A stretch of 64,000 nt of DNA, from positions 982 through 64,981 of the forward strand of contig DASXCT010000016.1 in NCBI GenBank assembly GCA_036491055.1. Reading direction: 5' to 3'. Positions 35,472-64,000 of the stretch are shown here, one piece after another. Position 1 is the stretch's first letter; the number at the start of each line of letters is the position of its first letter. The notes beneath the pieces are model-generated. The model was not told the DNA's origin, made no database searches, and saw nothing but the letters and a program-made list of their open reading frames with translations. Source of the DNA: Allosphingosinicella sp. (GTDB lineage: Bacteria; Pseudomonadota; Alphaproteobacteria; Sphingomonadales; Sphingomonadaceae). The position numbers and the translations under genes were made by a program.

Positions 35472-35500
35472 ATGTTCGCGGAACTGGTTTTTGCGAACAT
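35472..35500. promoter_or_regulatory. Inverted repeat ATGTTCGC-N13-GCGAACAT just upstream of the Fic gene
   Basis: Perfect 8-bp arms 9 bp from the start codon. Confidence 0.45.
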
Positions 35501-35660
35501 ATCATGCATGACGTGTTACAAAAAGTGAAAAATGTTAACACGTCTGGCCGCATATGCTATGCAGGGTGACGCATCTCGAGACCGACTCTCGCAAGCCGTC
35601 ATGCTCGCCCTCGTCGAAAGCTTGCGCTACGCTCCGCTAGCACACAGGGGGAATAGACGC

Positions 35661-36602: not shown

Positions 36603-36705
36603 GCGGCGCGGGGGCTGCGCCGGCTCCGGCGTTTCGCCGTCGACGCGATGCTCGCGCTCTTCGCCGACTTGCGCTAGGCTTCATCGCAAAACGGGGGGCA
36701 GGCGC

Positions 36706-41363: not shown

Positions 41364-42632
41364 TTGCATGAGGTCGAGATTCCGGGCGCCTTTCGGGGGT
41401 TGTTCGAGGCGCATCGCTACAAGGCCTTTTACGGCGGGCGGGGATCGGCCAAGTCGCATAGCTTTGCGACGGCTTTGGTCATCCTGGCGGCCGCGCGGCC
41501 TTTGCGGATCGTTTGCGCGCGGGAGATCCAGAACAGCTTGCGCGATTCGGTCAAGCAGCTGATCGAGGACAAGATCGCGGCGCTCGGGCTCGACGCGCAT
41601 TTCGATTGCCAGAGCAAGGTGACCAGGGGCCGCAACGGCTCGCATTTTTCCTATATCGGCCTGTGGCGGAACCCGGACGCGATCAAGTCGATGGAGGGGG
41701 CCGATATCTTCTGGGGGGAGGAGGCTTCGGCTTTCTCCGAACGCTCGCTTCGGATCGTGCGGCCGACCATGCGCAAGCCGGGATCGGAATTGTGGTTCTC
41801 GTGGAACCCGGAGTTCGAGCACGATCCGGTCGACCGCTTCTTCCGCGGCGGGGCGCCGCCGCCCGACGCTTTGGTGCGCGAGGTGAGCTGGCGCGACAAT
41901 CCCTGGTTCGCCGGCACGCCGCTCCAGGCCGAGATGGACTATGATTATTCCGCCGATCCGGCGCGCGCCGCCCATGTCTGGGGCGGGTCCTATGTCAGCG
42001 CGGTCGACGGGGCTTATTATGCCGCGGCGCTCGGCGAGGCACGGGCGGCGGGGCGGATCGGCCAGGTCGCGCCCGATCCCCTGATGGCCAAGCGCGCCTT
42101 CTGGGACTTGGGGGTGAGCGATTCGACCTCGGTCTGGGTGGCGCAGTTCGTCGGGCGCGAGATCCGGGTCCTGGATTATTGCGAGGGGCAGGGGCAGCCG
42201 CTTTCTTATTATTGCGACTGGCTGCGGGCGCGCGGCCATGGGTCGGCGCTCTGCGTGCTTCCGCATGACGGGGCGCGGCGGGACAATGTGACCGCTCTGC
42301 GCTTCGAGGACCATCTGCGCGAGGCCGGCTTCGCGGTCGAGACCGTGCCCAACCAGGGCAAGGGCGCTGCGATGCGGCGGATCGAGGCGGCGCGGCGGCT
42401 GTTCCCGGCGATCTGGTTCCACGAGGAGACGTGTCGCGAAGGGCTGAAGGCTTTGGCGGCTTATGCCGAGAAGCGGGACGACAAGAGGAATGTGGGGCTG
42501 GGGCCGGACCATAATTGGGCCTCGCATGCGGCCGATGCCTTCGGGCTGATGTGCATCGCTTATGAGGCGCCGCGGGAGCGGCGGAAGGCGGTGGAGCGGG
42601 CGGATTTCGGGGCTGGGGGGTGGATGGGGTGA
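41364..42632 (+). CDS. terL: Terminase large subunit (PBSX-type)
   Basis: YGGRGSAKSH Walker A; IFWGEEA Walker B; FSWNP; WDLGVSDST and HNWASHAADAF nuclease motifs. Confidence 0.95.
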   Translation: MHEVEIPGAFRGLFEAHRYKAFYGGRGSAKSHSFATALVILAAARPLRIVCAREIQNSLRDSVKQLIEDKIAALGLDAHFDCQSKVTRGRNGSHFSYIGLWRNPDAIKSMEGADIFWGEEASAFSERSLRIVRPTMRKPGSELWFSWNPEFEHDPVDRFFRGGAPPPDALVREVSWRDNPWFAGTPLQAEMDYDYSADPARAAHVWGGSYVSAVDGAYYAAALGEARAAGRIGQVAPDPLMAKRAFWDLGVSDSTSVWVAQFVGREIRVLDYCEGQGQPLSYYCDWLRARGHGSALCVLPHDGARRDNVTALRFEDHLREAGFAVETVPNQGKGAAMRRIEAARRLFPAIWFHEETCREGLKALAAYAEKRDDKRNVGLGPDHNWASHAADAFGLMCIAYEAPRERRKAVERADFGAGGWMG

Positions 42633-42872: not shown

Positions 42873-44948
42873 ATGGGTGAGATTGCTCCTGGCGACGGTT
42901 ACGACGCCGATGCCGACGACGCGGCCGAAACGCCCGACAAGATCCTTGCCGCGGCGCGGGAGGATTATCGGCGGGCGCGGGAATATTGGCAGGACAATCA
43001 GCGCGAGGCGCAGGCGGACCTGGAATTCGCGCGGCTGGGACGGCAATGGCCGGCAGCGGTCGAGGAGCAGCGGCGGCGCGAGCATCGGCCGTGCCTCACC
43101 TTCAACAAGATGCCCTCCTTCATCCGCCAGGTCGTCAACGATAGCCGGCAGAACAAGCCTTCGATCAAGGTCCACCCGCAGGATTCGGGCGCCGATCCGC
43201 AGGTCGCGACCATCTATGACGGGCTGATCCGCAACATCGAGGCGACCTCCGACGCCGACGTCGCCTACGACACCGCGATCGAGCATGCGGTGGGGCAGGG
43301 CTTCGGCTTCTGGCGGGTCAACACCGCTTATGCCTGCGACGACGCTTTCGACCAGGATATCGTGATCGAGCGGATCGCCAATCCGTTCACGGTGTACGGC
43401 GATCCGCGATCGACGGCGGCGGATTCGTCGGACTGGAACATCGCCTTCGTCATCACGACGATGCCGAAGGACGAGTTCGAGCGGCAGTACCCGGACGCCG
43501 AATGCACGAGCTGGGAGTTCGATTTCGCCGACTGCCCGGACTGGCTCGACGGCGACGACGTCGTCCTCGCCGAATATTGGACGCGGGAGAAGGCGGCGCA
43601 CGACATCGTCGCGCTTTCGGACGGATCGATCATCGCGCTCGAGGAATTGGAGGCCGATCCGCGCCAGTTCGAGGGCGTCGAGGTCGTCGGGCGGCCGCGT
43701 ACGGTCGAGACGTACAAGGTGACGCAGCGGCTGATGACCGGCGCCGAGATACTGAAGACGGTCGACTGGGCGGGCAAATATATCCCGATCGTCCCCGTTT
43801 ATGGCGACGAGGTGATCGACGAGCATGGCAAGCGCCATTTCCGGTCTTTGATCCGCGACGCCAAGTCGGCGCAGGAGATGCTCAATTACTGGCGGACGAC
43901 GACGACCGAGCTTGCCGCGCTCGCGCCCAAGGCGCCCTGGGTGGGCGAGCAGGGGGCGTTCGACGTCGATCCCAATTGGGACGTCGCGAACAGCGCGAGC
44001 CTTTCGAAGCTCGAATATCGCAAGGGCTCGCCGATGCCGCAGCGCCAGCCTTTCGCCGGCGTGCCGGCGGGGGCGCTGCAGGAGGCGCTGAACGCCAATG
44101 ACGACATGAAGGCGATCATCGGCATTTACGATGCGTCCTTGGGCGCGCGCAGCAACGAGACGTCGGGCAAGGCGATCATGGCGCGGCAGCGGGAAGGGGA
44201 CGTTTCGACCTTCCACTTCATCGACAATCTGTCGCGGGCGATCCGCCATTCGGGGCGGATCCTCCTCGACCTCATTCCCAAGGTCTATTCGACCCAGCGG
44301 ATGATCCGCGTGCTCGGCGACGATCTGGCGCCGGCCAATGCCCAGGTCGCGCCGACCGGGCAGGCGGTGACTCCGGTGGTCGGGCCGCCGCGGGCCGATC
44401 CCGCCAATCCGATGCAGCTGATGCCGCCGGCGGTGGTCGGGCATGTCTACGATCTCGCCGCGGGCAAATACGACCTCACCGTGTCGGCGGGGCCGAGCTA
44501 CACGTCGCGGCGCGAGGAGGCGAACGACCTCATGATGCAGATGATGCAGGCGGCGCCGCAGGTCATTCCTTTGATCGCCGACATCTGGGTCGAGCAGCAG
44601 GACATGCCGCTTGCCGACCAGCTCGCCGATCGGCTGCGGCTGATGTTGCCGCCCCAGGCGCAGCAGGGGCCGGGCGGGGCGGGGGGCGGTGTGCCGCCGC
44701 AGGTGGCGGCGCAGATGAGCCAGCAGCAGCAGGTCATCCAGCAGGGCGCCGCGAAGCTCCAGCAGCAGGCGCAGGAGAACCAGGCGATGCAATTGCGGAT
44801 CGCCCTGCTCGAGACCGAGCTCGCCAACCGCCAGAACGAGCAGGGCCTCAAGAGCCAGGAGCTGCAGGTCAAGAGCTACGACGCCGAGACGCGGCGGATC
44901 GAGGCGATGCGGCCGCAGGTGGTCGGGATGGGGGCGCAGGCGGGGTAG
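42873..44948 (+). CDS. Portal protein (P22 gp1-like)
   Basis: RPCLTFNKMPSFIRQVVNDSRQN, YIPIVPVYG, SLIRDAKSAQ, NETSGKAIMARQREG, GKYDLTVSAGPSYTSRREEA; Gln-rich C-terminal barrel. Confidence 0.93.
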   Translation: MGEIAPGDGYDADADDAAETPDKILAAAREDYRRAREYWQDNQREAQADLEFARLGRQWPAAVEEQRRREHRPCLTFNKMPSFIRQVVNDSRQNKPSIKVHPQDSGADPQVATIYDGLIRNIEATSDADVAYDTAIEHAVGQGFGFWRVNTAYACDDAFDQDIVIERIANPFTVYGDPRSTAADSSDWNIAFVITTMPKDEFERQYPDAECTSWEFDFADCPDWLDGDDVVLAEYWTREKAAHDIVALSDGSIIALEELEADPRQFEGVEVVGRPRTVETYKVTQRLMTGAEILKTVDWAGKYIPIVPVYGDEVIDEHGKRHFRSLIRDAKSAQEMLNYWRTTTTELAALAPKAPWVGEQGAFDVDPNWDVANSASLSKLEYRKGSPMPQRQPFAGVPAGALQEALNANDDMKAIIGIYDASLGARSNETSGKAIMARQREGDVSTFHFIDNLSRAIRHSGRILLDLIPKVYSTQRMIRVLGDDLAPANAQVAPTGQAVTPVVGPPRADPANPMQLMPPAVVGHVYDLAAGKYDLTVSAGPSYTSRREEANDLMMQMMQAAPQVIPLIADIWVEQQDMPLADQLADRLRLMLPPQAQQGPGGAGGGVPPQVAAQMSQQQQVIQQGAAKLQQQAQENQAMQLRIALLETELANRQNEQGLKSQELQVKSYDAETRRIEAMRPQVVGMGAQAG

Positions 44949-44992: not shown

Positions 44993-45211
44993 CTAGCGGT
45001 GGCCCCGCCCGAAGCTGGGCTGTGAATGCCTCACGCCGCTAGTGACAACGTCATAGCCGCATGGGTGGCAAACCAGGGTATTGGCCCGTCCCACCGGGAG
45101 GCTTTCATGCTTCATGATCGATTTCTTGCCGTGCTGATAGCAATGGGGACATATCCAATGGGGTGGCTCCGACGGCTCCACGCCTTCCTTCAAACGGTAG
45201 GCGACAGAGCC
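44993..45211 (-). pseudogene. 3' remnant of a zinc-ribbon hypothetical protein
   Basis: GSVAYRLK..EPPHWICPHCY..KKSIM..LVCHPC; recognisable homology stops at about 45212. Confidence 0.5.
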
Positions 45212-45213
45212 TT

Positions 45214-45435
45214 GCCTGGGATGCGCTAAACTCCGATCAGGATGCCGGGTCCATGGCCAGGACGTTCGCCCTGAATTATGAGGGGATGGCCAACAAAACA
45301 GACGATCCAAAGCAGCGGGCAGCGCTCGCGGACGTGCTCAGCACAATTCCCCTCGATCCTACCAAGTCCCCGCGGCGGCCCACTAGCCCGCCACCTGAAA
45401 TCCAGGCCTATCTCCGGCGACGAGCGGGCCGCTAA
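45214..45435 (+). pseudogene. 3' remnant paralogous to the C-terminus of the lysozyme-tipped ejection protein (61410..63578)
   Basis: AWDALNSDQDAGSMARTFALNYEGMANKTDDPKQRAAL vs AWAALHSNQSAGQMAAKVAMDYEGMANKTGDPEKRAAI; 35/58 identical over the last block. Confidence 0.85.
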
Positions 45436-45462
45436 ACCGACAGTCGGAGAGGGCCCAAAGAC

Positions 45463-45774
45463 TCAGTTGCGGTTCTTCCGGCATGGCAGCCAATAGAACA
45501 TCGACCTGGGTGCTTCGAATTCATGCGAGCCCCAGCACCAGCCCATCCGCTCCACGCGTTCGATTAGTCGGTCACGGCGCGCGCAGGTGCGTTTCTTGAC
45601 CGCAATGTCGTAGGTTCCGCTGCAGATCGGGTCCAGGACGGTAATCCGGCGGATGAGGCTTTCAAGCGGCTGCGTGCGCGGCGCTTTGTATTCCGAGATG
45701 CAGCATGCGCTCGCCGACGTCGTGATCAGTGTTGCCGCCAGGAACGCTGCCGCGATCGTTGTCGAAGGGCGCAT
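45463..45774 (-). CDS. Small exported Cys-rich protein, paralog of 63564..63914
   Basis: Signal peptide; ACCISE, TYD.AV.KRTCARRDRL, GWCWGS, YWLPCR shared. Confidence 0.8.
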   Translation of the reverse strand: MRPSTTIAAAFLAATLITTSASACCISEYKAPRTQPLESLIRRITVLDPICSGTYDIAVKKRTCARRDRLIERVERMGWCWGSHEFEAPRSMFYWLPCRKNRN

Positions 45775-46058: not shown

Positions 46059-46925
46059 ATGGAGAACGAGACCGCGACCAACCCAAGCGGCGGCGAGGAT
46101 ACGGATTTTTCCACCCTCGCCGGCGATGCGGGAGTCGAGACCGAGACGCTCGAACCGACCCTCGATGATTACGGCAATCCGGTCGAACCGGACGACAGCG
46201 AGGAAGTCGAGCAGGATGGGCAGAAATTCCGCGTGCCCAAGGCGCTCAAGGATTCGTTCCTGAGGCAGGCGGACTATACCCGCAAGACGCAGGAAGTGGC
46301 GGACATGCGCCGGGCCGTCGAGGCCGAGCGGCAGGTCCTCCACCAGGCCAGCGACGCGGAGATCGGGACGCTCGCCCAGGTGCGGGCGCTCGACCAGCAG
46401 CTTGGCTATTATAACCGCATCGACTGGGACCGCTGGGAGCAGCAGGATCCGTTCGAGGCCCAGAAGGGCTGGCGGCAGTTCCAGCAGCTCCAGCAGGCGC
46501 GGCAGCAGACCGCGGGACATTTTTCGCAGCTCGTACAGCACCGGAATTTCGTTGCGCAGCAGGACACTGCCAGGCGCATCGAGGAAGGCCGGGCAGTGCT
46601 CGCCCGCGACATCAAGGGATGGGGCCCCGAGCTGGCATCGGGCCTGCTCGAGACGGGCGCGAGGCAATACGGCCTGCACAGAGCGGAGATCGAGGAGGCT
46701 TTCACCGATCCCCGCCTGGTCAAGGTCCTGCACGACGCGCACCAATATCGCCTCATCCATGGCAAGCAGCAGCAGGCGCAGCGTCATCTCGCCGCGCAGC
46801 AGGCCGAACCAGCAGCCCGCCCCGCCGCCTCGCGCGCGCCCGGCCAGGGACTGGACGATCGGCTGAGCGCGGAGGAATGGGCGCGGCGCCGCGACGAGCA
46901 GGTGCGCAAGCGCCGGGCTCGATAA
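46059..46925 (+). CDS. Capsid scaffolding protein
   Basis: Acidic N-terminus, FLRQADYTRKTQEVA motif, helical Gln-rich body; lies between portal and coat. Confidence 0.85.
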   Translation: MENETATNPSGGEDTDFSTLAGDAGVETETLEPTLDDYGNPVEPDDSEEVEQDGQKFRVPKALKDSFLRQADYTRKTQEVADMRRAVEAERQVLHQASDAEIGTLAQVRALDQQLGYYNRIDWDRWEQQDPFEAQKGWRQFQQLQQARQQTAGHFSQLVQHRNFVAQQDTARRIEEGRAVLARDIKGWGPELASGLLETGARQYGLHRAEIEEAFTDPRLVKVLHDAHQYRLIHGKQQQAQRHLAAQQAEPAARPAASRAPGQGLDDRLSAEEWARRRDEQVRKRRAR

Positions 46926-47173: not shown

Positions 47174-48370
47174 ATGGCAAACAGCATTCTCACGCCCACC
47201 GCAGTGACCCGCGAGGCGCTGCGCATCCTCCACCAGAAGCTCAATTTCGTGGGCAATATCGTCCGCGAATATGATGACAGCTTCGCCAAGAAGGGCGCCC
47301 GGATCGGCGACACGCTCAAGATCCGGCTGCCCAACCAATATGTCGTGCGCACCGGCGCGGTGCTGGCGACGCAGGATACGAACGAGACCAGCGTGTCGCT
47401 GACCGTCGGCACCCAGAAGGGCGTCGACCTCAACTTCACCTCGGTCGACCTCACCTTGTCGCTGGACGATTTCTCCGACCGCATCCTGCAGCCGGCGATG
47501 ACCGTCCTCGCCGCGAACATCGAGGCCGACGCGCTTTCGATGTACAAGGACGTCGCCAACAGCGTGTGGAACGGCGGATCGGCGGCGACGCTCGCCAAGG
47601 TGCTGCAGGGGCGCAAGCTCCTCCAGGATCATTTGACGCCGCTCAACGAGCGCACGGCCTTGCTCAACACGCAGGACAATGTCGACATCGTCACCGACGT
47701 CAAAGGGCTGTTCAACGCGCAGGACACGATCTCGAAGCAATATAAGGAAGGCTATGTCGGCCGGACCGCGGGCTTCGATTTCGCGGAGAATACGTTGATC
47801 CCGGCCCATGCCCGCGGCGCCGGCAACACCGCCTATACGACCAACACCACCGGCCTTGCGACCGACGGCACCGAATATGCCGCCATCACCGTCGCGACCG
47901 GCACCGGCACGCTGAAGAAGGGCGACGTCATCACCATCGCCGGCATCGACCGCGCGCATCCGGAATCGAAGGCGGACCAGGGCGCTTTGCGCCAGTTCGT
48001 CGTCGCCGCCGATTATGCGGGCGGGGCCGGTTCGGTTTCGATCTCGCCGAGCATCTTCCTCGGCGGGCCGAAGCAGAATTGCGTCGCCGCGACGACCTCG
48101 GCGACGGCGGCGGTGGCAATCGCCGGCACCGCCTCGACCGCGGTCGGCACCTCGCTCATGTTCCAGAAGGAAGCGTTCGCCTTCGCGACCGCCGACCTGG
48201 TCATGCCGCAGGGCGTGGACTTCGCGTCGCGCCAGGTGCTCGACGGGGTGTCGATGCGGATCGTCCGCGCATACGACATCAACAACGACAAGTTCCCGTG
48301 CCGGATCGACGTCCTCTACGGGTACAAGACGCTGCGGGCCTCTCTGGCCTGCCGGCTGCACAACAACTGA
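47174..48370 (+). CDS. Major capsid protein (P22 coat protein gp5 family)
   Basis: MANSILTP, KGARIGDTLKIRLP, FAFATADL, FPCRIDVLYGYKTLR. Confidence 0.93.
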   Translation: MANSILTPTAVTREALRILHQKLNFVGNIVREYDDSFAKKGARIGDTLKIRLPNQYVVRTGAVLATQDTNETSVSLTVGTQKGVDLNFTSVDLTLSLDDFSDRILQPAMTVLAANIEADALSMYKDVANSVWNGGSAATLAKVLQGRKLLQDHLTPLNERTALLNTQDNVDIVTDVKGLFNAQDTISKQYKEGYVGRTAGFDFAENTLIPAHARGAGNTAYTTNTTGLATDGTEYAAITVATGTGTLKKGDVITIAGIDRAHPESKADQGALRQFVVAADYAGGAGSVSISPSIFLGGPKQNCVAATTSATAAVAIAGTASTAVGTSLMFQKEAFAFATADLVMPQGVDFASRQVLDGVSMRIVRAYDINNDKFPCRIDVLYGYKTLRASLACRLHNN

Positions 48371-49981: not shown

Positions 49982-50347
49982 ATGCAGCGTTACGATCCCA
50001 ATGCCGCCCATGGCGCGGTGTTCAGCCTGTGCCCGGGCACCGAATATGCGACGATCGCGGCCGCGCAGACCGACCAGGTGCTTGCGGGCTCGGAGAGCGG
50101 CGACGGCGTCGGCGCGGTCGGCGACTATCTTTCGCACCTCGTCATCGTGCCGGCGGCCGCGGCGTGCGGCGCGGTTTCGGTCAAGGACGGGAGCAATGCG
50201 ATCACAATCTTCGCCGGCGGCGGCACCGTCGCCTTGCCGACGCTCGCGCCGATCACGATCTTCCTCGGCCTTCGCAGCAAGTCCGGCTCCTGGAAGGTGA
50301 CGACCGGCGCCAGCGTCTCCGTGATCGCCGCCGGGGCGTTCAGCTGA
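49982..50347 (+). CDS. Hypothetical virion protein
   Basis: Co-oriented, beta-rich; TGATG coupling to next gene. Confidence 0.65.
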   Translation: MQRYDPNAAHGAVFSLCPGTEYATIAAAQTDQVLAGSESGDGVGAVGDYLSHLVIVPAAAACGAVSVKDGSNAITIFAGGGTVALPTLAPITIFLGLRSKSGSWKVTTGASVSVIAAGAFS

Positions 50348-51207
50348 TGTACCCCGCCGTCGCCGCCGCGATGAGCGGTGCCCAGGCCCCCGTCATTGCG
50401 GCGGCGGCGGCGAGCGGCTTCACCTTCGCGAACGCCGAGGCGGCGGCGGTCGTGGTCGCGATGACCAGCCCGCCGGACGATGCCCGCAAGCAGCTGATCG
50501 ACGATCTGGTCGGCGCGCTGAAGAACGGCGCGACCAGCGGCTCCGACATCTGGGCGAAGCTCGACTTGCTCTACATCCTCGCCGCCGCCGACCGGCAGGC
50601 CGCCTTGCTGAACTGGAAGGGTGGGGGCTTCGACGGCACGATCGCCGGTACCGGGACCTTCACGTCCGATCGCGGCTGGCAGGGCGACGGATCGACCGGC
50701 TATATCGATACCGGCTTCGACCCGACGATGGCGACGGCGCCGAATTACGCGCTGAACAGCGGGCATCTCGGCTTCTGGTCGCGGACGCCGGATGCGGCGG
50801 CCAGCACGGTGTCGCGGGACATCGGCTCGAACGGCAGCGGCAACGGAGCCGTCGCGCGGGACTCGAACGACAATGCATCCTGCGCGATCAATACGATTAT
50901 CAACCTCCAAAACGGCCCGACCTTCGGTCCGAACAGCGACGGCAGCGGTCATTTTTCCTTCAATCGCTCGGCGAGCGACGCGGAGCAGGTCTACCGGAAC
51001 GGTGTCGACATCGCCACGGTGAACAGGAACAAGGCGTCGCGAATACTTGTCGACGCGAACATCTTCGTCGGTGCGACGGGTAGCCCGCTCGCCCTTTCCT
51101 CGCGCGAGTTCGCAGCCGCGCACATTGGCGCAAGCCTGAATGCCCCGGAAACCGCAGATCTCTCCAATGCGCTCCAGACTTATCTTCACCAGGTAGGGGC
51201 CGCCTGA
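50347..51207 (+). CDS. Putative tail-associated protein, copy 1
   Basis: AMTSPPDDARKQLIDDLVG..IWAKLD N-terminal domain; beta-rich C-terminal domain; part of ORF 50029..51207. Confidence 0.75.
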   Translation: MYPAVAAAMSGAQAPVIAAAAASGFTFANAEAAAVVVAMTSPPDDARKQLIDDLVGALKNGATSGSDIWAKLDLLYILAAADRQAALLNWKGGGFDGTIAGTGTFTSDRGWQGDGSTGYIDTGFDPTMATAPNYALNSGHLGFWSRTPDAAASTVSRDIGSNGSGNGAVARDSNDNASCAINTIINLQNGPTFGPNSDGSGHFSFNRSASDAEQVYRNGVDIATVNRNKASRILVDANIFVGATGSPLALSSREFAAAHIGASLNAPETADLSNALQTYLHQVGAA

Positions 51208-51265
51208 CGTCGACCGCCACTCGACTACCCGGCAAATTCGGGAACCGTTTTCCCGTTGAGCGAGA

Positions 51266-51880
51266 TCAGGTGGTCCCTTTCGTTCCTGCGTTGGTGAGGA
51301 TGGTTTGCGAAATATGGCCGACCGACCATGAAAGCTGGTGATCTACGAAGATTTTGACCCCGGCCGCGCCGAGCTTGCGGAAAAGGTAATAATCCTCGCC
51401 AACGAAGTTCTCGCCATCCTCGCTCGGTTCGTTCAGGAAATAAGGCTTCTCGATTTTGCTGAAAACCGAGGTCTTCATCAGGCATAAGCCGAGTCCCATG
51501 GCGTCGACCTCCGTCAGCGCCCCTTTTTCGGCCAATTCCCTTGTTGTGGCAAACCATAAGCCGGGCCCGAGCGATGCCGTCGGCTGCTCCGGCATAAGCC
51601 GTTTGGCATAGTTCGCCCCCACAACGTCGAGATCGTGAGAGAGGAGCCTGGCAAGCGCGTCCGGTGGGAATGTGTGATCGGCGTCGAGCCACAGAATATA
51701 GTCTGCCCCACCCGTGATCGCCGCCTTGACCAATGACTGCCGAATGCCGGGAAGAGTGGCGGAGCTGCCTGCGATAAGCCCAATCTGCGCCTTGACCGTA
51801 TGCAGAAGAAGCTGACCCAGGCTGACCATGAACGCCAGCTTCGGATCGCCATGGCAGGGGATGCAGACCGCGACTTTCAT
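51266..51880 (-). CDS. GT-A fold (GT2-like) glycosyltransferase, copy 1, antisense to the late operon
   Basis: MKVAVCIPC, YILWLDADH (DxD), VVGANY, GEDYYL, VDHQLS..VGH. Confidence 0.8.
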   Translation of the reverse strand: MKVAVCIPCHGDPKLAFMVSLGQLLLHTVKAQIGLIAGSSATLPGIRQSLVKAAITGGADYILWLDADHTFPPDALARLLSHDLDVVGANYAKRLMPEQPTASLGPGLWFATTRELAEKGALTEVDAMGLGLCLMKTSVFSKIEKPYFLNEPSEDGENFVGEDYYLFRKLGAAGVKIFVDHQLSWSVGHISQTILTNAGTKGTT

Positions 51881-52212
51881 TCGGGCGGCGGCATAGCAGA
51901 AGGCATGGTTTGCCACATCGGATAAAATTGCGGGACTTCATCCTGATTCCCGCTCGCAACCGAAGCGTATCAGCGTCGCCGCCAAGCCATGTCCGCAAGG
52001 CCATCTGGAATGGACTTTTGTTTTACCGTTCTTTTCGGCCTGCTCATTCCACCTGACTGAAAACCACTCTAGCGAACGCCACGCACAATCCGGCAGGACC
52101 GCCGTCATCGTCGCTCCTTGGCGCGAAAGGGAGGAATTGTGATCGACCTCATCGCCTGCCTGCCTCCGCTTGGCTTCGGCTCGGATCGTATCGCTGTCGG
52201 GACTTTCGGCAG

Positions 52213-53028
52213 ATGAACCCTGCCGTCCTCGCCGCTTTGTGCGGCGCCCATGTCTCCGTCATGGCCGCGGCGGCCGAAGGCTTCGTCTTCGCGAACGTCG
52301 AGGCGGCGGTTGTCGTTGCCGCCATGACGAGCCCGCCCGACGATGCCCGCAAGCAGCTGATCGACGATCTCGTCGGATCGCTGAAGAACGGCGTGACCAG
52401 CGGCTCCGACATCTGGGCGAAGCTCGATTTCCTGTGGGTGCTGGCGGCGGCGGACAGCCAGGCTTCACTGATCGACTGGAAGGGAAGCTACGACCTCACC
52501 GCCAATGACGCGCCGACCTTCACCGCAGACCGGGGCTGGAACGGCGACGGGGCTACGGCGGGGATGAACCTGTCGAGCGCGTTCACGCCGTCGACGGCGG
52601 GAGGCCAGTGGGGAACGAACAGCGCGCATATCGGCGCGTTTAATCTTACCGCAGCCAGCTCAAGCGCCATTTCGGCTGGCGCGAGCACTGCCGTCGTTAG
52701 CGGCGGCACCGGTTCACCGGGCGGCTGGATTGGAACCAACTTCTTTGGCGAAACCCCCGCGCCGGCGGGCTCGGCGCCTCACCACATCTGCATCAGCCGA
52801 ACCGGCAACACGACCCAAGTCGCGTACCGAAACGGCGTCGGCGGATCGACGCAAACTTCGTCCGCAAGCGCCGTCGTCACTCCGATCTTCGTGCTTTCCG
52901 ACAGCGCGGGAGGCCCAGCAACAGACGCAAACATCTCTCTCGTTCATGGCGGCGCCGGGCTGAGCGCGGCCGAAGTGCTCGACCTCTACAACGCCGTCGC
53001 GACCTATTTGGCCGGGGTTGGCGCCTGA
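52213..53028 (+). CDS. Putative tail-associated protein, copy 2 (conserved N-terminus, divergent C-terminus)
   Basis: 34/36 identity to copy 1 over AMTSPP...WAKLD; C-terminal halves much less similar. Confidence 0.75.
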   Translation: MNPAVLAALCGAHVSVMAAAAEGFVFANVEAAVVVAAMTSPPDDARKQLIDDLVGSLKNGVTSGSDIWAKLDFLWVLAAADSQASLIDWKGSYDLTANDAPTFTADRGWNGDGATAGMNLSSAFTPSTAGGQWGTNSAHIGAFNLTAASSSAISAGASTAVVSGGTGSPGGWIGTNFFGETPAPAGSAPHHICISRTGNTTQVAYRNGVGGSTQTSSASAVVTPIFVLSDSAGGPATDANISLVHGGAGLSAAEVLDLYNAVATYLAGVGA

Positions 53029-53618
53029 TGCTTCAGCACGGTCTCCGCGATATGCCCGATCTCCCAGGAAACGGCATGATCGACGTAGACCGGTATCTTG
53101 GCGGCAAGTAGATTGCCGAAAAGGAAACTGTCCTCCCCTATCGCAATCTTGCGGTCGCGGTCATAGCCGAAGAGAAACCACGGTTCGGGAAGCCGCTCGA
53201 AAATCGAGGTGTTGGTGAGGCACAGGCCCAGACCCAGAGCGGACACCTGCTCCACGCTTCCGGACCTGACCTTCTCTTCCGTCGTGGCGACAGGCGTTTG
53301 ACCGATATAGGCGGTTGAGGGTTGTCCGGTTTGGCGCCTCACGCAATTGGCGCCGACCACGGGTACGTTGCGGGCGAGAAGTCGGCTCAGCGTGTCCGGT
53401 GGAAAGGTCATGTCCGCGTCGATCCAGAGGATCCAGTCGGCGCCCCATTCCCGGGCCTGGGCGACGAGCACGTTCCTGGCCTGTGGAAGGATCGCGGAGC
53501 TCACGACGAACAGGCGCACGTCGACATTTTCAATTCGATGGTTCGTCAGCCCCACCATGCTCAATAGGAAGCCGAGCTTCGGATCGCCGTGACAGGGTGT
53601 GCAGATCGCGACCTTCAT
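53004..53618 (-). CDS. GT-A fold (GT2-like) glycosyltransferase, copy 2, antisense
   Basis: MKVAICTPCHGDPKL, WILWIDADM (DxD), GEDSFL, VDHAVSWEIGH. Confidence 0.8.
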   Translation of the reverse strand: MKVAICTPCHGDPKLGFLLSMVGLTNHRIENVDVRLFVVSSAILPQARNVLVAQAREWGADWILWIDADMTFPPDTLSRLLARNVPVVGANCVRRQTGQPSTAYIGQTPVATTEEKVRSGSVEQVSALGLGLCLTNTSIFERLPEPWFLFGYDRDRKIAIGEDSFLFGNLLAAKIPVYVDHAVSWEIGHIAETVLKHQAPTPAK

Positions 53619-53677
53619 TTGACGGACCATAACATGCCGATGCTCTTCGCACAGCATCGCAACCACACGGAGGAATC

Positions 53678-57565: not shown

Positions 57566-60500
57566 ATGGGCCTTTCTTCTTCTTCGTCCAACTCGACGAG
57601 CAACCAGCAGACCAATCAGACCGCCACGACCACCCCGGTCGCGCCGTCCTGGCTGACCCAGGGGCTGCAAAATTATGTCGGGTCGATCGGCAGCTTCGCC
57701 GATTCCGATCCGAACAGCTTCGTCGCCGGCGCCTCGCCGCTCGAGCAGCAGGCGTATAACAATGCCGACGAGCTTGGCGGGCTCAACAACAATTTCAGCA
57801 CCGCGTCCAAGATCGCGCTCGGCGTCGCCAACGCGCCGGCGAGCACGGTCCCGTCCGCCTCCGGCTACGGCGCCGCGCAGGGGGGGGTGTCGACCTATAA
57901 TCCGGCGACCTTGTCCAACCCGTTCGCGGCGGGCGCCAGCGGCTATAATGCCGCCCAGACGACCGGCACCTCTTATTCGGCGCCGACCTTCACGCCGGTC
58001 AATGTCGGGGCGGGGCTGGATCTCAATGGATTTTCGCCATCCTCATCGTCCTCGTCCGGATCCTCGCCGTTCACGATCACGCCTTTCTCCTCGACCTCGC
58101 CGCAATCGATCACCGCCGGCGGTTCCATTCCGCAGCCGCTGACCGCCAATCCGAACGCCGCGCAGGGCGGCTCCTTCACCCTCTCGCCCTTCTCGGCGAC
58201 GTCGCCACAGGCGGATTTCAACGCGGCTTCGTCCTCGGCCATTCCCTATGCTTTGACCTCGGCCTCGGGCTACAATTCAGCCAATGCCGCGGCGACCGGC
58301 TATGCCGCGCCCAATCTCGGCGCGGCGAGCCAGGCGGCCGGCGCCGGCTACAATGCCGCCACCGCCAATTCCTCGGGCTATGCGGTGCCGTCGCTCGCCA
58401 ATGCGGCGCTTGCCACCGGCACCGGCTTCAACGCCGCGCTCGCCAATGCATCGGGCTATGCCGCGCCCAATCTCGGCGCGGCGAGCCAGGCGACCGGCGC
58501 CGGCTACAATGCCGCCAATGCCGCCGCCGCCGGCTATGCGGTGCCGTCGCTCGGCGCCGCGAGCCAGGCGACCGGCGCCGGCTACAATGCCGCCAACGCG
58601 GCCGCGAACGGCTATTCGGTGGCGTCGCTCGGCAATGCCGCGCTCGCTTCGGGCCAGGGCTATAATGCCGCGCAGGCGGGGCCGGTGACGATCGCGCCGG
58701 CCGCCAATGCGGCCGCGTCCAACGCCCAGGCGGCGAGCCTGCTCACCAACCTCAATGGCTACATGAACCCCTATCTCGGCCAGGTCGTCAACGCGAGCAT
58801 GGCCGATTTCGACCAGAATGCCGCCGTGCAGCAGGCCCAGCTCAAGGCGCAGGGCGCGGCCGCCGGCGCCTTCGGAGGATCGCGCTTCGGAGTCGCCCAG
58901 GCGAGCCTGGACGACGATCTCGCCCGCGCCCGCGCCACCACCGAATCCGGCCTCCTCTCCAACGCCTTCAACACTGCGGCCGGCCTTTCCCAGTCGGACG
59001 CCGCCAACCGCCAGCAGGCGAGCCTGTTCAACGCCCAGAACCAGACCGGCGTATCGCAGGCCAATGCCGCCGCCGCCAACCAGCGCGCGCTCAGCCAGGC
59101 GCAGCTCAGCGCCCAGCTCGGCCTCGCCAACCAGTCCGCGACCAACCAGGCGTCGGAGTTCGGTGCCAATGCGCAGAACGCGGCGAGCCTCGCCAACCAG
59201 TCGGCGAACAACCAGTTCGCGCTCACCCGCGCCGGCATGCAGAATGACGAATCCCAGTTCGCCGCCTCCGCGCAGAACCAGGCCTCGCTCGCCAATGCCG
59301 CCGCCGCCAACCAGGCCGGCCAGTTCGGCGCCAATGCGCAGAATGCGGCGAGCCTCGCCAACCAGTCGGCGAACAACCAGTTCGCCTTGACCCGTGCGGG
59401 CATGCAGAATGACGAGGCGCAATTCGCCGCCGGCGCGCAGAACCAGGCCTCGCTCGCCAATGCCGCCGCCGCCAACCAGGCCGGCCAGTTCGGCGCCTTG
59501 GCGAGGAACAATGCCAGCCTCGCCAACCAATCGGCCAACAACCAGTTCGCCCTGACCCGCGCCCAGCAGCAGGCCGACGCCTCGCAATTCGGGGCGGCGG
59601 CGCAGAACCAGGCGGCGCTCGCCAACGCCTCGGCGCGCAACCAGGCGAGCCTGTTCAACGCCCAGGCGACCAATGCCGCCGGCCTTTCCAACCAGAGCGC
59701 GCTCAACCAGTTCGCCCTGACCCGCACCGGCATGCAGAACGACCAGGCGCAATTCGCGGCTTCGGCGGCGAACCAGGCCGCGCTCGCCAATGCGGCGTCG
59801 CGTAACCAGGCAGCGCAGTTCGGCGCGACGGCCCAGAATAATGCCAGCCTCGCCAACCAGTCCGCCAACAACCAGTTCGCGCTGACCCGGGCCCAGCAGC
59901 AGGCCGACGCCTCGCAATTCGGGGCGTCGGCGGCGAACCAGGCGGCGCTCGCCAATGCGGCGGCGGCCAACCAGGCGGGCCAGTTCGGCGCGGCGGCGCG
60001 CAACACCGCCAGCCTCGCCAACCAGGGCGCCGTCAACCAGATCGGGCTCGCCCAGGCGCAGATGCAGAACGACGCCGCCAAATATGGGGCGGATACGGCG
60101 AACCAGATGGCGCTCGCCAATGCCGCCGCGCAGAACCAGGCGGCGCAGTTCGGCGCGACGGCGCTGAACAATGCCGGCCTCGCCAACCAGAGCGCCGGCA
60201 ACCAGTTCGCGCTCGCCCAGGCGCAGATGCAGAACGACGCCTCGCAGTACAATGCGACCGCCAACAATGCGTCGATGCAGGCCTATCTCGCCGCGCTCAA
60301 CCAGTCGGCGCAGTTCAACGCGGGCGCGCAGAACCAGGCGAGCCTGTTCAACGCCCAGCAGAATGAGGCCGGGCTCGCCCGCCAGCTCCAGGCGGCCAAT
60401 GCGCTCAGCCAATATGGCAGCGATTACGGCACCAACACCCGCGCGGATCTGGGCGCGATGTCGCAGCTCGGCGCCCAGCAGCAGCAGATCGAGCAGGCTT

Positions 60501-60700
60501 ATGCCCTGGCGCCGCTCGCCCAGCTCCAGGCGGTCGGCCAATTGTTCGGCGCGACGCCCTACCAGGCGCTGATCGGGCAGACGATCAACACCAACGGCAC
60601 CAGCAGCGGGACGAGCTCGACTACCACGACACCGAGCCTGTTCTCGATGCTCATGCAGGCGGGCCAGAACGCGGCTAATGCCTATGCGGCGGGGGCTTGA
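57566..60700 (+). CDS. DNA ejection (transfer) protein with 26-aa and 55-aa tandem repeats
   Basis: MGLSSSSS N-terminus, YMNPYLGQVV and GAFGGSRFGV motifs typical of podoviral ejection proteins; Asn/Gln/Ala repeats. Confidence 0.8.
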   Translation: MGLSSSSSNSTSNQQTNQTATTTPVAPSWLTQGLQNYVGSIGSFADSDPNSFVAGASPLEQQAYNNADELGGLNNNFSTASKIALGVANAPASTVPSASGYGAAQGGVSTYNPATLSNPFAAGASGYNAAQTTGTSYSAPTFTPVNVGAGLDLNGFSPSSSSSSGSSPFTITPFSSTSPQSITAGGSIPQPLTANPNAAQGGSFTLSPFSATSPQADFNAASSSAIPYALTSASGYNSANAAATGYAAPNLGAASQAAGAGYNAATANSSGYAVPSLANAALATGTGFNAALANASGYAAPNLGAASQATGAGYNAANAAAAGYAVPSLGAASQATGAGYNAANAAANGYSVASLGNAALASGQGYNAAQAGPVTIAPAANAAASNAQAASLLTNLNGYMNPYLGQVVNASMADFDQNAAVQQAQLKAQGAAAGAFGGSRFGVAQASLDDDLARARATTESGLLSNAFNTAAGLSQSDAANRQQASLFNAQNQTGVSQANAAAANQRALSQAQLSAQLGLANQSATNQASEFGANAQNAASLANQSANNQFALTRAGMQNDESQFAASAQNQASLANAAAANQAGQFGANAQNAASLANQSANNQFALTRAGMQNDEAQFAAGAQNQASLANAAAANQAGQFGALARNNASLANQSANNQFALTRAQQQADASQFGAAAQNQAALANASARNQASLFNAQATNAAGLSNQSALNQFALTRTGMQNDQAQFAASAANQAALANAASRNQAAQFGATAQNNASLANQSANNQFALTRAQQQADASQFGASAANQAALANAAAANQAGQFGAAARNTASLANQGAVNQIGLAQAQMQNDAAKYGADTANQMALANAAAQNQAAQFGATALNNAGLANQSAGNQFALAQAQMQNDASQYNATANNASMQAYLAALNQSAQFNAGAQNQASLFNAQQNEAGLARQLQAANALSQYGSDYGTNTRADLGAMSQLGAQQQQIEQAYALAPLAQLQAVGQLFGATPYQALIGQTINTNGTSSGTSSTTTTPSLFSMLMQAGQNAANAYAAGA
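58268..58657 (+). repeat. Five 78-bp (26-aa) coding tandem repeats
   Basis: GYNAANAAAAGYAVPSLGAASQATGA and variants. Confidence 0.9.
59159..60313 (+). repeat. Seven 165-bp (55-aa, 5 x 11-aa) coding tandem repeats
   Basis: FGANAQNAASL ANQSANNQFAL TRAGMQNDESQ FAASAQNQASL ANAAAANQAGQ; register holds exactly from ttc 59159 to ttc 60314. Confidence 0.92.
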
Positions 60701-61295: not shown

Positions 61296-61409
61296 TCGGT
61301 AAGTCGCACCCGCCCAAGGCAGGCCTGCGGCCCTTTTCACGACCATCATCAAGCTTCGCAGCCGGGCCGTCCCGCCCGCCATGCGGATCAATCCCCAGGA
61401 GGACGATCA

Positions 61410-63578
61410 ATGGCCTATCAGGACGGCGATTCCAGGACCTATGGCGGCGTCACCTATCTGCGCCAGGACGGCCTCTGGTATCCGCAGCCCGATCCCGTGC
61501 TCGCGGCCGCCCAAGGCGGCGATGGCGGCGCGCCCGGCGATGGCAGCCAGGGCAACGCGCCCGATGCGTCGGCGCAGGCCGATCCCGACCAGCTCACCGG
61601 TCAGATCGCCCAGGTCAAGGACCAGTTCGTCAACGCGACCGATCCCGGCCAGAAGGTCAACGCGCTGTGGCAACTCGGCTCACTGATCATGGCGGCGAGC
61701 CAGCAGCCGCAGCAGGGCGGGGGAAGCGACGGCAGCGGCGGTTCAACCGGCAATCCGCCACAGCCGGCCGCGCTTTTCCAGCCGGGGCAGAACCAGCAGA
61801 ATCCGCCGCCCTTCATTGCCGGGCTGTCCGGCGCGCCCGACGACCCGGCCGGCGCGCTCCAGCAGCTCGGCGCGCCGCAGGGATCGGATGACGGCGGCAA
61901 CGGCACTGCGCAGCCGCCGCTGCCCCCGCCGCTCCTCGGCCAAGGTTCCGACAATGACGGCAACGACGGATCGGGCATTCCCCTCCTACCGTCCGATCAG
62001 CAGGGTCCGCCGCCGTTCATAGCGGGGCTTCCGGGCGCGCCCGGCGATGTGGCCAGCGCCCTGCAGCAGCTCACCACCCAGCAGGGCGCGACGGCTCCGG
62101 GTCTCGGCGGCGGCAACGGTCCGCAGCCACCCGCCTCCTTGTTCGCTGCCGGCGGGCCAGGCGGCACGAGCGGCGGAGCGCAGTCCGGCGGTCTGTTCGG
62201 CGCGCCAAGCCAGTCCGCCGGGCCGCCGCTGCCGCCGGACCAGCAGAACCCGCCGCCCTTCGTCGCGGGACTTCCCGGCGCACCCGGCGACGTAGCCAGC
62301 ATCCTCCAGCAGCTCGGTACGCCGCAAGGGGCAGGGGCTTCCGGCGACGGGCCGGACGCGCCGCAGCCGCCGGGCTCGTTGCCCGTCACCAATGCACCCG
62401 GCACCGGGAGCGACGATCAGCAGCAGCCCGGCGGCTTGCTTGGCATGCCGGGCCAGCCCGTCGTACCGCAGGCGCCCGCGCCGGGAGGGCCGGGCCCCCA
62501 GGGAAGGCCGCCTTTCATCCTGGCCTCCGCGCAGCAGCCCTTCCAGCCGAATGGCTTGCCGCCCGGTGGCGCTTTTCCAGGGCAGGGTGCCCGCGGTTCC
62601 CAACCCCCTTTTGGCGGCGCACCTGCCGGATTCCGTCTGGCTTCGCTGGATTCGCCGTCGGACGGACAGGCGGTCCTGCGGACCTACGGCTCTCCATTGG
62701 ATCCGGTTCTTGGGCCGCCGGCCAGCATCGCCCGCGCGCCGATCAAGGGTGCGCCGGCAGCAACTGCGACGCGGCAACCGACAGCCGCGCCAGGAGCGGC
62801 CACCCCCCAGCCGGCACAGGACCCGTTGCATGCCGAGTATAATTTTCAAGCCAACACCAACCTGGCGGTGGGGAGCAGTAAACTCACTCCAGATCAGAAA
62901 GCCGACCGCATCTATCAGATTGCGAAGCAACGCGGCCGCCCACTCGATCCGCACATGCGGCCGTGGCTCAAGGGCCACGCAAACGCGCCGATGATCGGGA
63001 ACATGCACATCGGGGAAGTCATCTCGCTCGCCCAGCGGGGCACCAGATTACGCAACCGGCTGATGCAGTTCGGATTCACTCCCGCCGCCGCGGCAGCGAT
63101 GGCGGCCAACGCGATGGTGGAAAGCTATGGCTATTATCGGTCTCCACAGCTGAGTGGCGGACCCGGCTATGGCCTCTGGCAATGGTCGCCTTATCGGCGG
63201 GGCTTATACGAAACGCTGAAGAAAAAGCAGAACAAAACGCTAAAGCAAAATCAGGACGTAAGCTTCTCAGCTGCTAATGAGGATGACCAGATCCGGTTCA
63301 TGATCTGGGAAATGCAGAATCAGCACCCCTACCATGATGCGTGGGCGGCGCTGCACTCCAATCAGAGTGCGGGGCAGATGGCGGCCAAGGTCGCAATGGA
63401 TTACGAAGGAATGGCGAACAAGACGGGAGATCCCGAAAAACGGGCCGCAATCGCGGATCTGCTGAGCAGCATTCCCGTCGATCCTCGGATGAATCTGGCC
63501 GCGCCGTCGAGTCCGCCACCGGAGGTCGACGCCTTTCTGCGGCGCAAGGCTGCCAGTGCGCGGTCAGTCGGGCGCTGA
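61410..63578 (+). CDS. Ejection protein with low-complexity N-terminus and C-terminal phage-tail-lysozyme-like domain
   Basis: FGFTPAAAAAMAANAMVES..GPGYGLWQW..RR..DQIRFMIWEM..DYEG matches the Phage_lysozyme2 pattern; three PPPF.AGL.GAP.D.A..LQQL repeats. Confidence 0.8.
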   Translation: MAYQDGDSRTYGGVTYLRQDGLWYPQPDPVLAAAQGGDGGAPGDGSQGNAPDASAQADPDQLTGQIAQVKDQFVNATDPGQKVNALWQLGSLIMAASQQPQQGGGSDGSGGSTGNPPQPAALFQPGQNQQNPPPFIAGLSGAPDDPAGALQQLGAPQGSDDGGNGTAQPPLPPPLLGQGSDNDGNDGSGIPLLPSDQQGPPPFIAGLPGAPGDVASALQQLTTQQGATAPGLGGGNGPQPPASLFAAGGPGGTSGGAQSGGLFGAPSQSAGPPLPPDQQNPPPFVAGLPGAPGDVASILQQLGTPQGAGASGDGPDAPQPPGSLPVTNAPGTGSDDQQQPGGLLGMPGQPVVPQAPAPGGPGPQGRPPFILASAQQPFQPNGLPPGGAFPGQGARGSQPPFGGAPAGFRLASLDSPSDGQAVLRTYGSPLDPVLGPPASIARAPIKGAPAATATRQPTAAPGAATPQPAQDPLHAEYNFQANTNLAVGSSKLTPDQKADRIYQIAKQRGRPLDPHMRPWLKGHANAPMIGNMHIGEVISLAQRGTRLRNRLMQFGFTPAAAAAMAANAMVESYGYYRSPQLSGGPGYGLWQWSPYRRGLYETLKKKQNKTLKQNQDVSFSAANEDDQIRFMIWEMQNQHPYHDAWAALHSNQSAGQMAAKVAMDYEGMANKTGDPEKRAAIADLLSSIPVDPRMNLAAPSSPPPEVDAFLRRKAASARSVGR

Positions 63579-63914
63579 ATACCATGCCCAATTGTGGTTC
63601 CTCCGGCACGGAAGCCAATAGAGTTCGAGCTCCAGTGCGCGGTCGTCACGCGAGCCCCAGCACCAGCCTAATCGGTGCGCCTCGTGCAGCAGGCGATCTC
63701 GGCGTGCGCAGGTGCGTTTGATGACAGCCTCGTCGTAGGTTGAACCACATTGCAGGGCTGCGACTGCAACCCGATGGATGATGACATGCGCCCGCCCGGA
63801 GCGTGGCGCTCCAGTTTCCGAAATGCAGCACGCCGCCGCCGGCGCGGCAAGCAAAGTTGTGGCTGCGAGGAACAGGAAAAACCGCGTCGCCCTTTGTGAC
63901 AATGCAATCCTCAT
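63564..63914 (-). CDS. Small exported Cys-rich protein convergent on the lysozyme gene; candidate inhibitor/immunity protein
   Basis: Signal peptide, six Cys, paralog of 45463..45774; 15-bp 3' overlap with the lysozyme gene. Confidence 0.78.
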   Translation of the reverse strand: MRIALSQRATRFFLFLAATTLLAAPAAACCISETGAPRSGRAHVIIHRVAVAALQCGSTYDEAVIKRTCARRDRLLHEAHRLGWCWGSRDDRALELELYWLPCRRNHNWAWYSAPD

Positions 63915-64000
63915 AACCACTATCCCTTCTTGCCGGCCCGTCATCTGTCGCCGAACCGACGTACTTTATTATCAGGGACCTGCTTCTGGAACAATAGAAG

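Follow-up and report, generated by a model that had tools for sequence, protein, structure and literature searches.

A wall-hydrolase cassette with a convergent cysteine-rich partner gene on virion-type carriers of soil alphaproteobacterial prophages

The 64,000-nucleotide (nt) stretch of Allosphingosinicella contig DASXCT010000016.1 analysed here, hereafter the window, ends in two convergent genes at the far end of a phage morphogenesis module. The first, which we call the carrier, encodes 722 residues on the + strand (61410-63578) and consists of an N-terminal module, a disordered linker and a C-terminal wall-hydrolase cassette. The second, its partner, encodes a 116-residue cysteine-rich protein on the - strand (63564-63914), and the two open reading frames (ORFs) overlap tail to tail by 15 nt (TCAGTCGGGCGCTGA; 63564-63578, both strands). 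Comparison with related loci indicates that enzyme and partner very probably form one mobile two-gene cassette, exchanged as a unit between otherwise unrelated phage proteins.

An AGGAGG Shine-Dalgarno sequence (61397-61402) lies 7 nt 5' of the carrier ATG. The first 100 residues of the carrier (61410-61709, +), running from MAYQDGD to NALWQLGSLIMAASQQ, are a conserved module with a mean column identity of 78% over five proteins, the MAYQDGD start being kept in all four homologues, and this module is presumed to be the part that incorporates the protein into the virion or anchors it there. Residues 101-464 (61710-62801, +) are, by composition, a low-complexity linker dominated by G (20%), P (20%), A (13%) and Q (11%). 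The initial annotation, a reading of the DNA letters alone, had described some 470 residues of such linker; the low-complexity character holds, but the length comes down to about 365 residues, as the first ~100 belong to the conserved, non-repetitive module. The three PPPF.AGL.GAP.D.A..LQQL repeats that it had reported are recovered exactly, a regular-expression search giving three matches and no more at residues 132-153, 200-221 and 281-302 (61803-61868, 62007-62072 and 62250-62315, +), with I or V at the position after PPPF. Because these copies are only 77-83% identical as DNA yet nearly identical as peptides, the motif is maintained by selection and does not reflect recent duplication. Similarity to the four homologues (P0001-P0004) stops near residue 300, similarity to the cassettes of two other carriers (loci L005 and L004) begins at residue 465, and the recombination junction between N-terminal module and cassette appears from these comparisons to fall within the linker. 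By sequence analysis, the carriers are without signal peptide or transmembrane segment (maximum 19-residue hydropathy, 1.06).

The C-terminal cassette (residues 465-722; 62802-63578, +) is delimited by its similarity to the L005 and L004 carriers and by a lower GC content at third codon positions (GC3). Within it lies a Phage_lysozyme2 domain (PF18013; residues 548-682; 63051-63455, +), matched at E=1.5e-20 with 74.2 bits against a cutoff of 28.2 and covering profile positions 7-133 of 140. The motifs NAM.ES (E571/S572) and G.GL.QW (GYGLWQW here) are invariant in four cassette homologues (alignment A4), and ES and G.GL.QW are also present in the carriers of L011, L015 and L027; we take E571 to be the catalytic glutamate, as in lysozyme-like folds generally. 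An 11-residue insertion rich in K, N and Q is unique to the window copy. The cassette is 59% identical to that of the L005 carrier and 44% identical to that of the L004 carrier, both of which have a different N-terminus. GC content drops from 0.71-0.78 in the linker to 0.55-0.62 in the last ~770 nt and GC3 from 0.79-0.85 to 0.67-0.75, both remaining low in the antisense gene, although the AT-richness of the tail is in part an effect of amino-acid composition. GC3 of cassette and partner is 0.66-0.71, against 0.88 for core virion genes, and it is lower in cassette and partner than in the carrier N-terminal parts at all five loci tested. The domain match and the fall in GC and GC3 together bear out the AT-richer, tail-lysozyme-like C-terminus that had been read from the letters. 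The Phage_lysozyme2 family is defined from tail proteins according to its Pfam description, and there is a match to PHROG 9570 ('tape measure'). Local cleavage of peptidoglycan, as the protein exits the virion during infection, is the probable activity of the C-terminal domain. A single-sequence model of the cassette (predicted local distance difference test, pLDDT, 49.7) was too poor for inspection of the cleft.

The start of the partner was set by its homologues P0005-P0008, comparison with which places it at 63914, the longest ORF beginning at 63944; a GAAGGGA stretch resembling a ribosome-binding site can be read ~9 nt 5' of this ATG. The only hydrophobic stretch of the protein is N-terminal and resembles a Sec-type signal peptide, with likely cleavage after AAA28, leaving a mature part of ~88 residues that contains six cysteines (positions 29, 30, 56, 69, 85 and 103). 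The 15-nt overlap with the carrier is common to the three closest pairs (window, L002 and L005), and gaps of 3-11 nt take its place in L004, L011, L015 and L027. An antisense frame of this kind could arise by chance, since high-GC DNA yields many long spurious ORFs and GC by codon position is flat here (0.62/0.57/0.65), but conservation refutes that explanation. Twelve copies of the partner domain occur in 10 loci (11 in related loci plus a second copy in the window), the homologues share a signal peptide and a GWCWGS motif, and the cysteine positions are conserved in the eight close copies, among which the pairwise ratio of nonsynonymous to synonymous substitution rates (dN/dS) is 0.15-0.5; between the two window copies it is 0.71. 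The window partner also matches PHROG 25984 (E=3e-7), and an AlphaFold2 model of it has a core with pLDDT 80-94, comprising two helices and a β-hairpin. Given copies with conserved cysteines, dN/dS below 1 and the PHROG match, the partner is a true gene under purifying selection, and the probability of a chance frame is negligible; the antisense, signal-peptide-bearing six-cysteine gene of the initial annotation is accordingly confirmed, down to its overlap with the carrier 3' end. An o-spanin assignment was considered and rejected in view of the convergent orientation, the absence of an i-spanin partner and a cleavage site that, by eye, does not form a canonical lipobox.

Relatives of the carrier N-terminus are few. 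An exhaustive HMMER search with the N-terminal module against 1.84e9 cluster representatives returned only P0001, P0003 and P0004 (P0002 falling in the same cluster), together with P0009, a spurious repeat protein that was discarded. Low-complexity words dominated the word-indexed protein searches, which gave four matches with the full-length protein and none with the N-terminal part. GTDB genomes, IMG/VR and JGI contigs contained no match to the N-terminal pattern, a partner pattern scan of JGI contigs and a type-C scan of IMG/VR were likewise empty, and 50,697 cultured or deposited phage records contain no relatives of carrier, cassette or partner.

The five MAYQDGD proteins nevertheless carry four types of C-terminus, or tip: Phage_lysozyme2 in the window, SLT (PF01464) in P0001, a 'GRYQM' type in P0002 and P0003, and a 'GLGQF' type in P0004. 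Over its first 300 residues the window protein is 43-64% identical to P0001-P0004, and the C-termini differ; the P0004 C-terminus is instead 55% identical to the 'GLGQF' tip of another carrier, in L004. Locus L003 belongs to a close relative of the window phage (94% nt identity over the end of the upstream gene for a 1044-residue protein), yet its tip is of the 'GRYQM' type. A lambda-R-like assignment of the 'GRYQM' tip of P0002 and P0003 was not supported by BLASTP (E=0.25), and PDB sequence searches with the cassette, the 'GRYQM' and 'GLGQF' tip types and the neighbouring virion genes were uninformative.

The small secreted gene next to the carrier changes with the tip. Lysozyme2 stands beside a convergent cysteine-rich partner in seven of seven intact cases (window, L002, L005, L004, L011, L015 and L027), the 'GLGQF' tip beside a secreted protein of 229 or 232 residues in both cases, the 'GRYQM' tip beside a secreted cysteine-rich protein of 129 residues in both cases (the L003 copy, uncalled as a gene, is 61-65% identical), and the one VgrG3-like_C tip (E=6e-46), in L004, beside an LprI-family protein (E=4e-15). 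All partner types carry export signals. Lysozyme and partner identities are correlated (Spearman 0.88 over 15 pairs, which are non-independent). Lysozyme2 proteins that stand alone in low-GC viral contigs, and are only distantly related, lack a partner; the pairing is thus confined to the high-GC group with virion-fused domains. Collecting N-terminal homologues was the check that the initial annotation had proposed, and its outcome, different C-termini with an adjacent small secreted gene that changes with them, favours the exchangeable cassette and the effector/immunity-like pairing that it had put forward, the more so as the pair recurs on unrelated carriers.

In locus L002 a lysozyme2 C-terminus and its convergent cysteine-rich partner are followed by another MAYQDGD gene, this one tipped with SLT. 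The final 100 nt of the window (63898-64000) align to the L002 spacer preceding that second gene, and the unitigs assembled from the source run are interrupted at 61427-61448 and ~89 nt beyond the window end, both breaks fitting a repeated 5' end; a second carrier gene therefore probably follows, starting ~75 nt past the window end.

Further loci were reached via homologues of the partner and of the cassette, and the seven intact pairs are distributed over three unrelated carriers: the MAYQDGD type, portal-proximal proteins and tape measure proteins. The carriers of L004, L005 and L027 share an unrelated N-terminus, MVKPWELDW...LPIVPFFG (also MLKQMDW), and this N-terminal family bears at least three tip types. 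Those of L004 and L027 sit between the portal and scaffold genes. In L004 (7855-14990) three tandem carriers end in lysozyme2, 'GLGQF' and VgrG3-like_C tips, each with a partner, and the 232-residue partner of the 'GLGQF' tip is 46% identical to the 229-residue protein of L001; the locus also has an extra, orphan cysteine-rich partner. At L027 (3614-6124) there is a single lysozyme2 pair, plus an LprI-family orphan sharing 62% identity with the L004 gene. The portal-scaffold gap is a hot spot for hydrolase-tipped genes. In L011 and L015 the lysozyme2 domain ends tape-measure-like proteins, and a convergent partner-domain gene lies 5-8 nt away; the next gene in L011 is a Mu-type DNA_circ_N gene, and the L011 partner domain is, as the only case, fused to a PF07007 'lysozyme inhibitor LprI' domain (E=1.5e-9). 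In L008 a SleB-like (Hydrolase_2) tip is accompanied by a lipoprotein gene and a lysozyme2 remnant by a partner-like lipoprotein; the locus also has a lambda-R-like tip (E=3e-16).

This distribution bears on whether the two genes are functionally connected at all. The cysteine-rich gene might be a moron or lysogenic-conversion gene that masks receptors or modifies the envelope, or might act on the wall substrate, and be merely linked to the enzyme. It has no similarity to known inhibitors, P22 is known to keep moron/sie genes just behind its last ejection-protein gene, and linkage alone would give correlated divergence. Simple hitch-hiking in a slot, however, does not explain an adjacency that is kept on three carriers at different positions (late-operon end, portal-scaffold gap and tape measure/DNA_circ_N), different tips have different partners, and the partner domain of L011 is fused to an LprI domain. 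We consider an unrelated neighbour quite improbable.

Intact cysteine-rich partner genes also persist without a functional lysozyme, in L006, L004, L001 and the window; the L006 orphan lies directly 3' of a homologue of the 205-residue-protein gene that precedes the window carrier. The window case lies in the portal-scaffold gap, where a decayed cassette consists of a 5'-truncated Phage_lysozyme2 C-terminus (45163-45450, +; the ORF ends at 45435, and tblastn similarity runs to 45450) that is 61% identical to residues 644-714 of the 722-residue protein, with 68% DNA identity over 411 nt. Convergent with this remnant is an orphan partner of 103 residues with six cysteines and a signal peptide (45463-45774, -), identified by tblastn (52% to P0007), by a hidden Markov model of the partner (E=6e-40) and by PHROG 25984 (E=1.6e-6). 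A decayed enzyme beside a retained partner is what would be expected if the partner targets enzymes arriving from outside. A Zn-ribbon-like ORF without family matches (44993-45310, -) adjoins the decayed cassette.

The orphans also bear on whether the partner protects its own producer, by shielding the wall before lysis or by timing lysis, with a tip that may double as an endolysin-like enzyme after permeabilisation of the inner membrane. Such a role would suit the 129-residue, 229-residue and LprI-like partners, which lie on the carrier strand directly after the carrier and would be co-expressed late, and the T4 inhibitor Spackle is made during infection, not lysogeny (PMC7677548). No separate lysis cassette is seen in the window either, although this weighs little as the prophage is cut by the window end. 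On the other side, carriers without signal peptide or transmembrane segment would stay cytoplasmic until lysis, so that no periplasmic shield is needed; the cysteine-rich partner is convergent, and not co-transcribed, in seven of seven intact pairs; and orphans that persist without a lysozyme argue for a target outside the producer. Self-protection or lysis control is, in our estimation, distinctly unlikely.

Several of the loci have the architecture of polymorphic toxins: a constant N-terminal module with alternative C-termini, a co-varying small neighbour, tandem arrays and orphan immunity-like genes. The carriers could accordingly be weapons against competing bacteria, delivered in particles or released by lysis, with the partner giving immunity to kin lysogens. 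One tip is a type VI secretion system (T6SS) VgrG3-like C-terminal domain with an LprI-family gene, the MAYQDGD genes of L001 lie outside any phage module, and polymorphic toxins of prophages are known, namely MuF (PMC5576092) and Bxa (PMC11699363). Every assignable tip, however, is a wall hydrolase, with no nuclease, ADP-ribosyltransferase or pore former of the kinds known from MuF and Bxa among them, and the lysozyme2 cassette with its partner also occurs on tape measure proteins, whose hydrolase domains serve infection. Cell lysis by the few molecules in a virion is unlikely, the Gram-negative outer membrane is a barrier that free enzyme cannot pass, and neither a secretion signal nor a known trafficking domain is present in the carrier. 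An interbacterial weapon is therefore unlikely, and the antibacterial delivery device offered in the initial annotation finds no specific support, the cassette on tape measure proteins pointing to a function in infection; the superinfection block that it named as the other option fits better by comparison with known systems.

The carrier's place in the phage is given by its surroundings. The morphogenesis module begins at ~41 kb on the + strand with the large terminase gene (TerL; 41364-42632, +), followed by a P22-type portal gene (42873-44948, +; PF16510, P22_portal, E=4.7e-184), a scaffold gene (46059-46925, +), a P22-type coat gene (47174-48370, +), tail-fibre-like and other structural genes, and then genes for proteins of 581, 1044, 205 and 722 residues, the last four being without family matches except for the lysozyme domain of the 722-residue protein. 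The carrier is the final gene of the late (virion) operon within the window, after the tail genes, which is the position of podovirus ejection proteins; in cultured podoviruses with the same portal type, such as Xanthomonas phage PBR31, 'internal proteins A-C' come last in the late operon at the matching position, and they show no sequence similarity to the 722-residue protein. The 722-residue protein is thus a candidate ejection protein by its late-operon position, with no homology to known ejection proteins. The window sequence is present in soil metagenome runs and the homologues derive from Allosphingosinicella and 'Alphaproteobacteria' metagenome-assembled genomes, so we assign the element to a prophage of a soil alphaproteobacterium.

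Our proposal is that a temperate podovirus, P22-type in its portal, coat and terminase, encodes the 722-residue protein as a modular accessory part of its virion. The N-terminal ~100 residues would direct the protein into the particle, the long Gly/Pro-rich disordered linker would serve as a tether, and the C-terminal ~255 residues, with the convergent gene, would move between virion carriers by recombination in low-complexity linkers. Tape measure proteins are established virion components whose wall-hydrolase domains aid infection, and since the lysozyme2 tip sits on such proteins, a virion-delivered penetration enzyme is the simplest reading of the tip. Carriers are without export signals and partners all have them; enzyme and partner would thus meet only in the periplasm, with the enzyme coming from outside. 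There the partner, exported via its signal peptide and disulfide-bonded, would bind and inhibit its cognate lysozyme2. Adjacency on any carrier, co-divergence, orphans and the LprI fusion make a specific periplasmic inhibitor the best-fitting reading, and we regard inhibition of the cognate enzyme as moderately probable on this comparative evidence. Transcribed against the late operon from a promoter of its own, the partner could be made by the lysogen and would then neutralise the wall-penetration enzyme of incoming phages with the same tip. Superinfection exclusion is the most likely role in view of the T4 Spackle and P22 sieA precedents, and we give the full model, in which a virion-delivered wall hydrolase is met by a prophage-expressed periplasmic inhibitor, an even chance of being correct. 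An arms race would then have left as its traces the swapping of tips, tandem carriers that differ in tip, and the retention of orphans.

A broader proposal is more tentative, and we hold it to be possible rather than probable: that these genes make up a polymorphic system of wall-penetration enzymes and periplasmic inhibitors in temperate phages of soil alphaproteobacteria, with cassettes crossing ejection-type, portal-proximal and tape measure carriers, a cysteine-rich inhibitor of new fold, and resident inhibitors, orphans included, that exclude by tip type and so define 'lysozyme immunity groups', driving tip swapping and multi-tip arrays. Such a system would extend the lone Spackle example to a modular and widespread arms race over passage through the cell wall.

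A number of observations weigh against these proposals. The partner has no match in Pfam at E values up to 1, belongs to no NCBIfam or PADLOC family, and its model finds no PDB structure below E=1 with Foldseek, although the Spackle structures are in the PDB; known inhibitors (Ivy, MliC/PliC, PliG, PliI and LprI) are recognised in it neither by profile nor by fold, and the inhibitor reading of a partner without family or fold match rests on context. The scan for a consensus promoter near the partner found none, in a window that extends only 86 nt upstream of it, and an AT-rich TGATAATAAAG patch upstream is suggestive only. Pfam, PHROG, NCBIfam and PDB give the carrier no match outside the lysozyme domain, no known ejection or internal virion protein is homologous to it, and synteny is the ground for placing it in the virion. 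The same-strand placement of the other partner types would suit self-protection equally well. Virion wall hydrolases are often dispensable in the laboratory (T7 gp16 and the TM4 tape measure protein), and inhibiting them may exclude only weakly. Ten loci make up the sample, and most are short metagenomic contigs of related soil bacteria. Finally, L001 (12.9 kb; 1-12860) has two MAYQDGD genes with partners and no phage module; their neighbours are a LysR gene, an alcohol dehydrogenase gene and, interspersed, three near-identical Y1_Tnp (IS200/RAYT-like) genes, and the locus also holds an orphan 129-residue partner and an orphan cysteine-rich partner (968-1456, -). L001 may be a decayed or transposed array, or its proteins may be able to work outside a virion, and the Y1_Tnp genes may point to transposon-mediated spread of the cassette.

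The nearest analogue in proposed function is T4 Spackle (gp61.3), which is small, periplasmic and disulfide-bonded and shows selective inhibition of gp5, the tail lysozyme (PMC7677548). As with Spackle and gp5, a small phage protein with periplasmic signal and cysteines, here localised by prediction, is paired with a virion-type lysozyme. The two are nonetheless without sequence or fold similarity, Spackle being a helical bundle and the partner model consisting of two helices and a β-hairpin; the gp5 lysozyme is T4-type and the enzyme here PF18013; and the window phage is temperate, its partner convergent and coupled to the enzyme as a mobile cassette, with orphan and multi-cassette arrangements. 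In P22, sieA lies 22 nt 3' of gene 16, the last injection-protein gene, on the opposite strand and with its own promoter, and so resembles the partner as a small gene convergent with, and directly 3' of, the last ejection-type gene. SieA itself has three transmembrane domains, resides in the inner membrane and blocks DNA injection via the ejection proteins (PMC10883804); unlike the partner, which is predicted to be secreted, soluble and cysteine-rich, it is a membrane protein without signal peptide, and no PHROG or Pfam link connects the two. Nor do the P22 ejection proteins (gp16/gp20) have a lysozyme domain, in contrast to the 722-residue carrier.

MuF and Bxa likewise join a conserved phage-associated N-terminal module to a variable enzymatic C-terminus and a small cognate gene, and are confined to temperate phages; their virion delivery has been hypothesised (PMC5576092, PMC11699363), and the MuF paper does not mention peptidoglycan or lysozyme (PMC5576092). 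Their N-termini are unrelated to those described here, their toxins and immunity proteins are cytoplasmic whereas hydrolases acting in the periplasm and secreted partners are predicted here, and the present cassette occurs also on tape measure proteins. T6SS pairs (VgrG3/TsiV3, Tse/Tsi and LprI/DUF1311-type immunity) share a periplasmic wall hydrolase, an adjacent signal-peptide protein and orphan immunity genes, but neither T6SS genes nor trafficking domains are found here and the genes lie inside phage morphogenesis modules. Judged by homology, the system is a member of none of these groups (Spackle, T6SS pairs, MuF/Bxa or SieA). Like the T7 gp16 lytic transglycosylase domain, phiKMV gp36 and TM4 Tmp, the carrier places a wall hydrolase within a protein that would leave the virion at infection; to our knowledge, none of those three has been described with a dedicated co-varying secreted partner or as interchangeable tips on a common N-terminus. 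Nor did we find in the literature a description of interchangeable wall-hydrolase virion tips that each have a co-varying secreted partner.

Exclusion through the wall-penetration enzyme is documented for one system, T4 Spackle/gp5, and the polymorphic toxins so far documented in prophages are all cytoplasmic. Should the partner be a specific inhibitor, the Spackle strategy would have a separate origin in temperate phages, where enzyme and inhibitor would pass together, by inheritance and by exchange, among carriers of podo-, myo- and sipho-type. Like receptor binding, the passage through peptidoglycan would then be a contested, diversifying interface. An inhibitor function would also add a new family of proteinaceous lysozyme inhibitors, with the 129- and 229-residue partners as further candidates, and would provide a discovery rule, to look directly 3' of hydrolase-tipped virion proteins, and a handle for phage engineering that predicts cross-exclusion between phages. 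Should the partner prove not to be an inhibitor, its carrier-independent linkage would still mark a function tied to virion lysozymes.

The remainder of the window, which has a GC content of 67% and no tRNA gene, is less directly connected with the pair. The 1044-residue protein (57566-60700) is rich in A, N and Q and is encoded with tandem repeats of 165 nt (6.7 copies) and 78 nt (~5 copies). Its gene has the 94% DNA identity to L003 at its 3' end, and beyond it the genes are diverged or replaced, from which a recombination boundary near 60.6-61.2 kb follows. Farther upstream are two tail-fibre-like paralogues (50029-51207 and 52213-53028; PHROG 26223/18498), and behind each comes a convergent gene of PHROG 1574 (51266-51916, -, and 53004-53666, -), a family with a weak link to glycosyltransferase morons. 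This region (50029-53666) is a second tandem arrangement of virion gene and antisense partner, in which receptor-binding proteins may be paired with genes for receptor modification or for chaperones.

In its left half the window carries ordinary bacterial chromosome, with genes for a nonribosomal-peptide-synthetase-like adenylation protein, a GH3 glycosidase, a TonB-dependent receptor and an LD-carboxypeptidase. To the left of the virion module there are also genes for a patatin-like protein (26353-29136, -), a PLD-like protein (29451-31340, +) and a Fic/DOC protein (34318-35463, -), as well as two Adhesin_E-like genes (35532-38064, +); together these genes (26353-38064) may be accessory or defence-type cargo of the prophage, or a separate island.

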